12,663 nucleotides of DNA, taken from positions 1 through 12,663 of IMG/VR virus record IMGVR_UViG_2740892369_000024. One strand, given 5' to 3'. How positions within the stretch are numbered: the stretch's first letter is position 1; every line of letters starts with the position of its first letter. The notes below the pieces were generated by a model that searched no databases, was not told the origin of the DNA, and was given only the letters and a program-made list of their open reading frames with translations. Below are positions 3,288 to 5,759 of the stretch, in pieces. The DNA is from a virus (lineage: Duplodnaviria > Heunggongvirae > Uroviricota > Caudoviricetes). The position numbers and the translations under genes are program-made.

Positions 3288-5759
3288 ATGAGTAAGGTCT
3301 TTATTTGCGCTGCTATTCCTGATGAACAGGCCATAAAAGAAGATAGCGCTGTTGCGGTGGCCACTGCCATTGAAGCTGGTGATGAGCGTCGCGCACGCGC
3401 AAAATTTCATTGGCAATTTCTGGAGCAATTCCCTGCAGCTCAGGACTGCGCTTATAAATTTATTGTCTGTGAGGATAAACCCGGCATACCCCGCCCTGCC
3501 CTCGATTCCTGGGATGCTGAATATATGCAGGAAAACCGCTGGGATGAGGCGTCTGCTTCCTTTGTCCCGGTTGAGACTGAATCAGATCCGATGAACGTCA
3601 CTTTTGACAAGCTGGCCCCTGAAGTACAGAACGCTGTCATGGTTAAGTTCGACACATGTGAAAACATCACCGTTGATATGGTTATTAGCGCACAGGAATT
3701 GTTGCAGGAAGACATGGCAACATTCGACGGACATATCGTTGAAGCGTTGATGAAAATGCCAGAAGTTAACGCCATGTATCCGGAGCTTAAGCTGCATGCC
3801 ATCGGGTGGGTTAAGCATAAATGTAAGCCTGGTGCCAAATGGCCCGAAATTCAGGCAGAGATGCGCATCTGGAAAAAACGTCGCGAAGGTGAACGCAAGG
3901 AAACCGGAAAATACACGTCTGTTGTTGATCTCGCCCGCGCCAGAGTCAATCAACAGCACACTGAAAATTCAACAGGAAAAATCAGCCTGGTCATTGCTGC
4001 CATTCATCGCGAATACAAGCAGACATGGAAAACACTGGATGACGAACTGGCCTACGCTCTCTGGCCTGGTGATGTGGATGCCGGAAACATTGACGGCAGC
4101 ATCCATCGCTGGGCAAAAAATGAAGTTATCGACAACTACCGCGAAGACTGGAAGCGTATCTCGGCATCAATGCGCAAACAGCCTGATGCCCTTCGCTACG
4201 ACCGCCAGACTATTTTTGGCCTTGTCCGTGAACGTCCGATCGACATTCACAAAGACCCTGTGGCACTGAACAAATACATTACTGAATACCTGACTACAAA
4301 GGGCGTGTTTGAAGATGAAGGAACAAATCAGAGCGCAACTGATACTCTCTCGTCGCCAGTACCAGAAACTGATGCAGTGGAAACGGCAATTCCGGACAAC
4401 GAAAAAACCGAATGCAAAGTGGAAGTCGAACCATCTGTAGAGCGTGAGGGGCCGTTCTACTTCCTCTTCACCGACAAGGATGGCGAAAAATACGGTCGCG
4501 CAAACAAACTTTCTGGTCTGGATAAGGCACTGGCTGCCGGGGCTACTGAAATCACGAAAGAAGAATATTTCGCCCGCAAAAACGGTACATACTCAGGTTC
4601 ACAACAAAATACTGGTGCATCTGACACGACCGCACAACCAGAGCCGGTAAAAGTTACCGCTGACGAAGTAAACAAAATTATGCAGGCAGCCAATATCAGC
4701 CAGCCTGACGCCGATAAGTTGCTTGCTGCCTCTCGCGGAGAATTTGTTGCAGGGATTAGCGACCCGAATGATCCGAAATGGGTTAAGGGGATCCAGACCC
4801 GCGATTCTGTAAACCAGAACCAGCATGAATCGGAACGGAACTACCAAAAAGCGGAACAAAACAGCCCAAATGCGTTACAAAACGAGCCAGAAACGAAACA
4901 GCCTGAACCAGTGGCGCAACAGGAAGTGGAAAAAGTCTGCACCGCCTGCGGTCAGACCGGCGGCGGCAACTGCCCTGATTGTGGCGCGGTGATGGGCGAC
5001 GCAACATACCAGGAAACATTCGATGAAGAGTATCAGGTTGAAGTTCAGGAAGATGATCCGGAGAAAATGGAAGGCGCTGAACATCCACACAAGGAGAACA
5101 CTGGCGGCAATCAGCATCATGCCAGCGATAATGAAACTGGCGAGACGGCAGATCACTCAATTAAGGTGAACGGTCATCAAGAAATCACATCCACCAGCAG
5201 GACGTGTGACCATCTAATGATCGACCTTGAAACCATGGGAAAAAATCCTGATGCCCCGATCATCTCAATAGGTGCAATATTTTTCGATCCGCAAACCGGA
5301 GATATGGGACCGGAATTTAGTAAGACTATCGATCTGGAAACTGCTGGCGGAGTCATTGATCGGGACACCATTAAATGGTGGCTTAAGCAATCACGCGAAG
5401 CGCAATCTGCCATTATGACCGATGAAATCCCGTTAGATGATGCACTGTTACAATTGCGGGAATTTATCGACGAAAACTCCGGTGAATTTTTTGTTCAGGT
5501 TTGGGGAAATGGAGCCAACTTCGACAACACGATTTTGCGCCGTTCATACGAACGGCAGGGGATCCCCTGCCCGTGGCGTTACTACAACGATCGCGATGTA
5601 CGCACAATCGTTGAGCTGGGGAAAGCCATAGACTTCGATGCCAGAACGGCTATTCCATTCGAAGGTGAGCGCCATAATGCACTTGATGACGCTCGTCACC
5701 AGGCAAAATACGTTTCAGCTATCTGGCAAAAACTGATCCCGAATCAGGCTGATTTTTAA
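3288..5759 (+). CDS. Phage exonuclease of the type usually annotated exodeoxyribonuclease VIII-like (823 aa), with a C-terminal DnaQ-like DEDDh 3'-5' exonuclease domain
   Basis: ATG at 3288 with GAGGT upstream. The C-terminal ~190 aa carry Exo I (MIDLETMG), Exo II (WGNGANFDNTIL) and Exo III (HNALDDARH) motifs. A CxxC-x7-CxxC zinc-ribbon-like motif (VCTACGQTGGGNCPDCG) precedes it, and a long acidic, Q/E/P-rich low-complexity linker lies in between. The position before xis-int is that of the exo/recE-type gene in lambdoid early-left operons. Confidence 0.9.
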   Translation: MSKVFICAAIPDEQAIKEDSAVAVATAIEAGDERRARAKFHWQFLEQFPAAQDCAYKFIVCEDKPGIPRPALDSWDAEYMQENRWDEASASFVPVETESDPMNVTFDKLAPEVQNAVMVKFDTCENITVDMVISAQELLQEDMATFDGHIVEALMKMPEVNAMYPELKLHAIGWVKHKCKPGAKWPEIQAEMRIWKKRREGERKETGKYTSVVDLARARVNQQHTENSTGKISLVIAAIHREYKQTWKTLDDELAYALWPGDVDAGNIDGSIHRWAKNEVIDNYREDWKRISASMRKQPDALRYDRQTIFGLVRERPIDIHKDPVALNKYITEYLTTKGVFEDEGTNQSATDTLSSPVPETDAVETAIPDNEKTECKVEVEPSVEREGPFYFLFTDKDGEKYGRANKLSGLDKALAAGATEITKEEYFARKNGTYSGSQQNTGASDTTAQPEPVKVTADEVNKIMQAANISQPDADKLLAASRGEFVAGISDPNDPKWVKGIQTRDSVNQNQHESERNYQKAEQNSPNALQNEPETKQPEPVAQQEVEKVCTACGQTGGGNCPDCGAVMGDATYQETFDEEYQVEVQEDDPEKMEGAEHPHKENTGGNQHHASDNETGETADHSIKVNGHQEITSTSRTCDHLMIDLETMGKNPDAPIISIGAIFFDPQTGDMGPEFSKTIDLETAGGVIDRDTIKWWLKQSREAQSAIMTDEIPLDDALLQLREFIDENSGEFFVQVWGNGANFDNTILRRSYERQGIPCPWRYYNDRDVRTIVELGKAIDFDARTAIPFEGERHNALDDARHQAKYVSAIWQKLIPNQADF

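Follow-up and report, generated by a model that had tools for sequence, protein, structure and literature searches.

The window analysed here is a stretch of 12,663 nucleotides (nt) from a Caudoviricetes virus (IMG/VR record IMGVR_UViG_2740892369_000024, positions 1 to 12,663), and its subject is an open reading frame (ORF) on the plus strand, hereafter called the 823-aa gene after the length of its predicted product in amino acids (aa). The ORF corresponds to 823 codons in a single intact reading frame, beginning with ATG and preceded by a putative ribosome-binding site. As judged from its sequence, the protein is a RecE-type body in which the C-terminal PD-(D/E)XK nuclease head has been exchanged for a DEDDh exonuclease head. 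An earlier note on this DNA had described the product as a large phage exonuclease with a zinc ribbon, an acidic linker and a DEDDh domain, encoded without an annealase partner.

3275 to 3278, plus strand: GAGG ribosome-binding site, 10-13 nt before the ATG, from reading of the sequence
3288 to 5759, plus strand: coding sequence of an intact ydfE-type gene, coding for a RecE-like scaffold with a DEDDh exonuclease head (RefSeq WP_044165005.1, 'exonuclease')

Identical DNA is found in chromosomes of enterohaemorrhagic Escherichia coli (EHEC), where it is annotated as 'exonuclease' under the same accession. Copies covering at least 80 % of the gene are present in 3533 of 5426 complete E. coli genomes (approximately 65 %), and genomes with any match to the gene carry such matches in a median of 2 places, with up to 10. 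A single-protein scan of IMG/VR for related loci returned only loci that were 94-99 % identical; among 80 such loci the ORF was intact at 823 aa in 78 and 830 aa long in one, and two were cut by contig ends. Because of the identical annotated sequence in EHEC, the intact ORFs in 78 of the 80 loci and a low ratio of non-synonymous to synonymous polymorphism (pN/pS, 0.10-0.25) in the folded parts of the product, the ORF is a real gene and not a chance reading frame. In the pseudogene ydfE of E. coli K-12 only 256 codons from the start of this gene are left (95 % identity over aa 1-256), the rest being cut off by IS2E, so that on sequence grounds the 823-aa gene is the intact, full-length form of K-12 ydfE. 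Viable phages also carry the protein in the same operon, namely mEp460_ev081 (93.3 % identical) and Tritos (92.9 % identical over the full length, gene order dicF, dicB, ydfD, exo, xis, int). The protein is already represented in databases, as PHROG 2082 and through the Pfam families YdfE_N, YdfE_C and Rv2179c-like.

The C-terminal head of the protein comprises the domain and the three motifs listed below.

5211 to 5726, plus strand: DEDDh 3'-5' exonuclease domain of the DexA/EcD/Rv2179c family, aa 642-813 (PF16473; pN/pS 0.19)
5223 to 5234, plus strand: Exo I motif DLET, aa 646-649 (D646, E648), from motif reading and the alignment with DexA
5505 to 5525, plus strand: Exo II motif GNGANFD, aa 740-746 (D746), from motif reading and the alignment with DexA
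5673 to 5699, plus strand: Exo III motif HNALDDARH, aa 796-804 (H796, D801), from motif reading and the alignment with DexA

The match to PF16473 (Rv2179c-like 3'-5' exonuclease) had an E value of 5.8e-68 and a score of 228.5 bits against a cut-off of 27, and extended over profile positions 2-177 of 177. The five catalytic residues D646, E648, D746, H796 and D801 aligned with those of DexA from phage T4 and were invariant in the multiple alignment. Among the PDB sequences, the T4 DexA chains (8kel and 8ken) were the only matches to the protein, no other entry being found at E values up to 1. No Pfam match to DUF3799, of the PD-(D/E)XK type, was obtained in the protein, and no similarity to RecE was found beyond RecE aa 591. 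From these matches we infer both a DNA substrate and a 3'-5' polarity for the head.

The part of the protein preceding the head contains the following elements.

3288 to 3587, plus strand: scaffold domain 1, aa 1-100, alpha/beta, part of Pfam YdfE_N (PF27430), from the AlphaFold2 model
3600 to 3905, plus strand: scaffold domain 2, aa 105-206, helical, part of YdfE_N, from the AlphaFold2 model (pN/pS 0.16)
4020 to 4307, plus strand: scaffold domain 3, aa 245-340, helical, Pfam YdfE_C (PF27432), from the AlphaFold2 model; homologous to RecE from about RecE aa 278 to 350 (pN/pS 0.25)
4449 to 4583, plus strand: small beta-beta-alpha-beta-alpha domain, aa 388-432, with the motif GPFYF...GRANK; AlphaFold2 predicted local distance difference test (pLDDT) above 90 (pN/pS 0.11)
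4698 to 4817, plus strand: conserved motif block, aa 471-510 (...AASRGEFVAGISDPNDPKWVKGIQTRD), almost unchanged in RecE, from the RecE alignment (pN/pS 0.12)
4712 to 5154, plus strand: the sole stretch with DNA-level similarity to recE of the Rac prophage, 76.5 % identity by blastn; aa 476-623, corresponding to RecE aa 456-589
4938 to 4982, plus strand: CxxC-x7-CxxC zinc-ribbon motif CTACGQTGGGNCPDC, aa 551-565, from motif reading (pN/pS 0.18 for aa 549-580)
4983 to 5207, plus strand: acidic, probably disordered linker, aa 566-640, from composition (pN/pS 0.81 for aa 581-640)

Residues 262-625 align with residues 278-591 of K-12 RecE (BLASTP E value 2e-61), and from about aa 470 onwards, a stretch that contains the zinc-ribbon cysteines and the acidic linker, the two sequences hardly differ. 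The NCBIfam equivalog model for RecE, NF007259 (PRK09709), matched aa 246-625 with an E value of 6.7e-83, but only over profile positions 271-602 and with 279 bits against a cut-off of 1269. The DNA similarity to Rac recE likewise ends at the border of the RecE nuclease domain. Since the similarity to RecE stops at this border, the two proteins differ by a swap of heads on a common scaffold. The homology of aa 262-625 to RecE also accounts for the label 'exonuclease VIII', which is found on relatives in phage records, PHROG names and JGI names, as the earlier note had anticipated. Membership of the 823-aa protein in the RecE/exonuclease VIII family itself was rejected, as the head is not of the PD-(D/E)XK type, the equivalog cut-off was missed and no recT lies adjacent to the gene.

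An AlphaFold2 model, computed with 26 diverse sequences and covering aa 1-460 with a mean pLDDT of 81.7, contains four domains separated or followed by disordered linkers (aa 209-236, 345-383 and 439-460); searches for structural relatives of the four domains gave none that was informative. The GPFYF...GRANK domain is kept in the YdfE-type relatives and is missing from K-12 RecE. Acidic residues in the linker region are densest at aa 561-600, with 13 Asp or Glu among 40 residues. Only the E. coli-type clade has the zinc ribbon, which the divergent DEDDh fusions lack, so that it is an accessory rather than a defining feature; a GISDPxDPKW motif is kept more widely. Across 74 distinct alleles pN/pS was 0.10-0.25 in each predicted folded part and 0.4-2.5 in the linkers, and the folded parts are all under purifying selection.

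The anatomy given in the earlier note was confirmed in every element. The size of the exonuclease, the DnaQ-like C-terminal domain with its three Exo motifs, the CxxC-x7-CxxC motif and the acidic region were all found where it had placed them. The Pfam check that it proposed assigned a DEDDh family, and no non-DEDD fold, to the C-terminal domain, which differs, as the note had held, from the PD-(D/E)XK nuclease of RecE and lambda Exo and which takes the position of that nuclease in RecE. In the N-terminal 600 aa the corresponding check returned YdfE_N and YdfE_C together with homology to RecE from aa 262. What the note had missed was the reason for the exonuclease VIII label, as well as the identity of the gene with ydfE.

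The protein belongs to a mosaic family, which was collected by an exhaustive HMMER search of 1.84 billion representative proteins followed by BLAST module by module. Its members have an N-terminal part either of the YdfE type (PF27430 and PF27432) or of the RecE type (PF06630), and the scaffold is found with three heads: the DEDDh domain, the PD-(D/E)XK domain (DUF3799) and a third head of about 300 aa. As far as the sequences indicate, N-terminal types and C-terminal heads combine freely across the family. DEDDh heads are present in the 823-aa protein, in P0123 and P0124, and in about ten more divergent clusters, the heads of which are 55-61 % identical to that of the 823-aa protein. P0124 joins the N-terminus of RecE (100 % identity with K-12 over aa 1-270 and 92 % over aa 271-450) to a DEDDh head 98 % identical to that of the 823-aa protein. 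PD-(D/E)XK heads are found in RecE and in P0161 and P0140, the latter two with YdfE-type N-termini, and the third head in P0136, P0149, P0154 (L010:5001-7370 and L011:5001-7370), P0181 and P0236.

The third head had no Pfam match at E values up to 0.001, and phmmer and profile searches with it against the PDB sequences gave no match. It contains the motif KKSLTDAxKKALSxLGFSADVWLGLYD, preceded by INAEYMxMRATExFGPxGxxWG, which resembles the Rad52/Sak signature. Below the Pfam threshold, Rad52_Rad22 matched the signature helix in five of the five members (best E value 0.0027; the first member scored 17.5 bits, the cut-off being 20.3) and was the only family matched by all of them. An AlphaFold2 model of the head (pLDDT 67) has a helix, five long strands, a further helix and a helical bundle, and hhalign aligned the helix matched by Pfam with the corresponding signature helices in Erf and Bet, without significance. 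On these grounds the third head is a probable Rad52-like annealase. The genes coding for it are followed by a Mu-Gam-like gene and by no separate annealase gene, and their products may correspond to the 'RecE-2' proteins, which Zheng et al. (Genome Res 2025; PMC12315714) describe as being without a nuclease domain. If an annealase and two exonucleases that differ in polarity do indeed share one scaffold, this would tie the scaffold to recombination and away from RNA metabolism.

As a separate observation, a small ORF of the Rrf2 family, 112-116 aa long, lies directly upstream of fusions of the RecE N-terminus with the DEDDh head in four loci from three divergent lineages (P0135, P0132 and P0159), in the place of dicB and ydfD.

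L125:5522-5860: Rrf2-family ORF
L126:5522-5860: Rrf2-family ORF
L127:5521-5859: Rrf2-family ORF
L128:476-826: Rrf2-family ORF

The neighbouring gene changes with the head. DEDDh fusions were followed by excisionase and integrase genes, without recT, in eight of eight contexts (the window, mEp460_ev081/Tritos, vB_EcoS-813R8, a Rac-like prophage with P0124 and four divergent lineages), whereas PD-(D/E)XK fusions were followed by recT in three of three (Rac, L008 and L009, the last with PHROG 561). The distribution of 8/0 against 0/3 corresponds to p of about 0.006 in Fisher's exact test, for lineages that are not fully independent. A tblastn search of the 80 close IMG/VR loci with RecT, Bet, lambda Exo, lambda Gam and the RecE nuclease gave no matches; dicB and ydfD were present in 77 of these loci, which carried three different xis/int modules. 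In the RefSeq annotation of the surrounding prophage of approximately 47 kb there was no RecT, Bet or Erf, and no SSB, Abc2 or Gam. No annealase is annotated in mEp460_ev081 or in the early and late regions of Tritos, and none appeared in the Pfam listings of five further contexts. The earlier note had stated that xis follows the exonuclease gene directly, with no RecT/Bet-type gene beside it, and had suggested a search elsewhere in the prophage; the gap to xis is 61 nt, no annealase gene lies between the exonuclease gene and xis/int, and none is annotated in the remaining prophage. Assignment to the two-component recombinases, consisting of an exonuclease and an annealase, was rejected, as no annealase was found in the annotations, the tblastn search or the Pfam listings and the head belongs by sequence to a 3'-5' and not to a 5'-3' family.

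The prophage is a complete lambdoid prophage of the Qin/Tritos type. Its early-left operon has the order LexA-family repressor, DUF1391, ydfB, ydfC, an additional ORF, DicF RNA, dicB, ydfD-like gene, exonuclease gene, xis and int. The neighbouring genes and the recombination hot-spot (Chi) sites within the window are as follows.

2593 to 2644, plus strand: DicF small RNA, full length (Rfam RF00039, 76.7 bits)
2819 to 3007, plus strand: dicB, from annotation
3004 to 3192, plus strand: ydfD-like gene, DUF1482, from annotation
5191 to 5198, minus strand: Chi site (GCTGGTGG on the minus strand) inside the exonuclease gene, one of 7 in the putatively active orientation, from sequence counting
5821 to 6090, plus strand: xis, from annotation
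6059 to 7177, plus strand: int, from annotation
7007 to 7014, minus strand: Chi site inside int, from sequence counting

The gene occupies the slot that is taken by exo and bet in lambda and by recET in Rac. A crude consensus scan found no promoter and no plus-strand terminator between dicB/ydfD and the gene. Because its gene has a distal position in a repressor-controlled early-left operon (ydfA-C, dicF, dicB, ydfD, exo, xis, int), the enzyme is probably produced after induction or infection rather than in the lysogen. Seven Chi sites in the putatively active orientation and two in the other were counted in the prophage, and likewise seven on the top and two on the bottom strand of mEp460_ev081 (L124); base composition predicts 0.9 per strand.

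Several other features of this operon were observed. The dicBF operon of the Qin type is intact in the window. The LexA-family repressor (367-1083, plus strand) has 238 aa by the RefSeq start and 257 aa as the longest ORF, compared with 135 aa for DicA of K-12 Qin, and the prophage copy may still be SOS-inducible. A hypothetical ORF of 124 aa (1912-2286, plus strand) lies between ydfC and dicF, where K-12 Qin has a gap of about 340 nt; it had no match in PADLOC, the only library searched.

The protein was compared with several known systems. RecE of Rac in K-12 is similarly large (866 aa compared with 823 aa), has its nuclease at the C-terminus and shares the zinc ribbon, the acidic linker and the middle region. 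It differs in its head, which is a 5'-3' nuclease of the PD-(D/E)XK type (aa 602-866) and not a putative 3'-5' DEDDh nuclease, in its first approximately 260 aa, which belong to Exonuc_VIII (PF06630) and not to YdfE_N, and in being followed by an adjacent, translationally coupled recT in place of xis. The function of the N-terminal region of RecE is given as unknown in a review (PMC11611040). T4 DexA has the same PF16473-type DEDDh fold, and the head is 27 % identical to it with all five catalytic residues kept. The DexA residue W152, proposed to recognize 5-hydroxymethylcytosine (5hmC), corresponds to Y766, and D169 to an alanine, although the alignment near D169 is uncertain; the tetramerization residue D90 is kept as D718. 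EcD is reported to be a 3'-5' DNase that digests the 5hmC-containing DNA of T4 and protects E. coli (PMC12153337). An EcD-like protein of 189 aa, starting with MIDTET, was located in IMG/VR prophage contigs by means of the primers in the supplement of that paper; it is 37 % identical to aa 644-816 (E value 8e-37) and has A78 at the position of D90. DexA and EcD are standalone enzymes of 189-227 aa, whereas the domain here is the head of a protein of 823 aa. Classification as a defence exonuclease of the HREX/EcD type was rejected for this fusion and because the residues proposed to recognize 5hmC are not conserved and D90 is retained. The EcD-like gene was found at L105:7842-8411 and also in L100, L115, L118 and L121, and the printed reverse primer has one extra A compared with these sequences.

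Other relatives of the head are also standalone. In phage epsilon34, gp34 (182 aa, 57 % identical to the head), the DnaQ-type nuclease of P22-like recombination modules, is encoded in the early-left operon in the order kil, erf, ssb, DnaQ, abc2, and so adjoins an annealase and a RecBCD modifier, neither of which accompanies the 823-aa gene; PMC12315714 includes this DnaQ-type gene in the recombination module. A standalone copy is also present in mEp460_4F5, immediately ahead of xis. Rv2179c of Mycobacterium tuberculosis, which gave PF16473 its name, is an exoribonuclease, standalone and not phage-borne, and is too distant to be detected by sequence among the solved structures at E values up to 1.

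The 'nuclease-only' arrangement, of which Tritos is the published prototype among Chi-bearing lambdoid phages, is already catalogued in PMC12315714, where Table 1 lists a 'Tritos' type of four phages with a nuclease and no single-strand annealing protein, SSB or anti-RecBCD function, and with Chi counts from 21/6 down to 7/2. The prophage described here has the same characteristics, namely a nuclease, no annealase, SSB or anti-RecBCD function found (RecT, Bet and Gam in the 80 loci; the others by annotation), and Chi counts of 7/2. According to the same source, phages without an anti-RecBCD function carry many Chi sites and the phage LLS grows better with RecBCD, and sporadic DnaQ-type genes are found near int, outside recognizable modules. 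In its accessible sections the Tritos type is tabulated without domain anatomy, the RecE head swap or a function.

Taken together, the domain content, the operon position and the missing partner make it fairly likely that the protein is a modular phage 3'-5' exonuclease of DNA ends, made on induction and working without an annealase. The N-terminal scaffold of about 460 aa would be joined to the DEDDh head through disordered linkers, the motif block and the zinc ribbon shared with RecE, and the head would shorten its substrate from the 3' end, D646, E648, D746, H796 and D801 serving in two-metal catalysis. The architecture of RecE would thereby be kept, its 5'-3' head and recT being replaced by a head of opposite polarity without a partner, and the enzyme could act on the DNA ends of phage or host independently of a single-strand annealing protein. 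RecBCD is loaded at DNA ends that are blunt or nearly so. The enzyme might therefore feed ends to RecBCD by trimming away their 3' tails until they are blunt, and RecBCD would load and reach the Chi sites of phages that keep these sites without an annealase or a RecBCD inhibitor. Such end processing for host RecBCD/RecA-dependent recombination is put forward only tentatively as the role of the enzyme in Tritos-type phages. The position of the epsilon34 gene beside that of Abc2, a protein that redirects RecBCD and does not block it, would be in keeping with such end feeding.

A number of points weigh against this interpretation. A role in favour of recombination is not self-evident, since 3'-5' exonucleases usually antagonize recombination (PMC12315714), and the same source does not count DnaQ-type genes near int as members of recombination modules. 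The seven Chi sites are just below the eight or more of most phages without a recombination module, and are close to the ordinary density in E. coli. Distant annealase types (Sak4, Gp2.5 and UvsX) were excluded by annotation and Pfam listings alone, the contexts counted for the association of head and partner share some ancestry, and the result of the crude promoter scan is compatible with expression in lysogens. Furthermore, an RNA substrate is possible for a family named after the exoribonuclease Rv2179c, and standalone relatives have been reported as anti-phage defence enzymes (EcD, PMC12153337; the ISG20-like TONDOs, PMC13344964).

These last reports suggest that the enzyme might serve in defence or superinfection exclusion, degrading competitor phage DNA, perhaps modified, from its 3' ends, or trimming the genomes of RNA phages. 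The reported protection against T4 by standalone EcD would agree with this, as would the reported blocking of RNA phages by prophage-encoded ISG20-like DEDDh enzymes with auxiliary domains, the protective effect against phages reported for the neighbouring dicB (PMC6832061), and the very wide distribution of the gene in E. coli prophages. We nevertheless regard a defence role as rather unlikely: the PADLOC models gave no match to the protein, the residues proposed to recognize 5hmC are not kept and D90, lost in the EcD type, is, the gene comes late in a repressed early operon and no promoter of its own was detected, and in viable phages it is retained at the place of the recombination genes. 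Removal of 3' tails, as by ExoI and ExoX, could also mask ends, blocking RecA loading, SOS signalling or end sensing. DnaQ-type 3'-5' exonucleases generally inhibit homologous recombination (PMC12315714), no annealase was found, and all phage recombination exonucleases known so far have a polarity opposite to the one predicted here; but the carrier phages, having Chi without a recombination system of their own, seem to need host recombination (PMC12315714), and the epsilon34 homologue lies inside a recombination module beside Erf and SSB, so that end masking appears improbable.

Conversion of host DNA fragments to mononucleotides for phage DNA synthesis after induction, an established role of DexA in the same family (PMC12153337), would suit the lytic early expression expected from the operon position. 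Such scavenging leaves the conserved RecE-type scaffold of 640 aa, the strong purifying selection and the exact exchange with RecE and RecT unexplained, and we think it very unlikely. No degradation of the host chromosome is known for temperate lambdoid phages, which also counts against it. Hardly any weight is given to an exoribonuclease acting on RNA 3' ends, for example in the processing or turnover of operon RNAs such as DicF, the gene for which lies in the same operon. It is true that PF16473 takes its name from Rv2179c, that RefSeq uses names such as '3'-5' exoribonuclease' and that DEDDh enzymes often accept both RNA and DNA, but DexA chains are the sole matches among solved structures (E values up to 1), the closest characterized relatives, EcD and DexA, are DNases, and the scaffold is common to the DNA enzyme RecE and a probable DNA annealase.

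Two further observations concern the surroundings of the prophage genes. Directly after int lies a cluster of type III secretion effector genes of low GC content (35-42 %) at 7586-12628, including espM2, NleG-like DUF1076 genes, espW and nleG, interspersed with remnants of a tail-fibre assembly gene and a ykgJ pseudogene; it has the appearance of an effector locus or of a relic of an adjacent prophage. Approximately 3 kb to the left of the window, a pair of genes annotated as 'beta family protein' and 'sce7726 family protein' (L001:1449-3084) adjoins a truncated ISEsa1 transposase gene by the replication region, and is possibly an inserted accessory or defence cassette.

The 823-aa gene is common and already present in databases, and the phage type is tabulated, so that the system is not categorically new; the present analysis adds the anatomy of the RecE head swap, the association of head and partner, the identity with ydfE and the selection profile. 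It assigns a defined, testable enzyme to a very common prophage gene of E. coli and EHEC that is routinely mislabelled as exonuclease VIII or exoribonuclease, and is relevant to the way in which lambdoid phages that have no recombination system of their own cope with host RecBCD. As a wider and more speculative proposal, which we consider doubtful, the RecE/YdfE scaffold could be a general delivery platform on which lambdoid phages mount interchangeable heads, the 5'-3' exonuclease being paired with RecT, the Rad52-like annealase with a Mu-Gam-like protein and the 3'-5' exonuclease with no partner. In its DEDDh form the protein would then be a phage helper of host recombination, serving phages that gave up their own annealase and anti-RecBCD function. 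RecE is a workhorse of recombineering, and efficient linear-linear recombination needs the full-length protein, of which the N-terminal 600 aa have no known function. This body is reused with a nuclease whose polarity is reversed and, it seems, with an annealase as well; the partner gene changes with the head, and head swaps and pull-downs would give a direct handle on what the RecE/YdfE body does.

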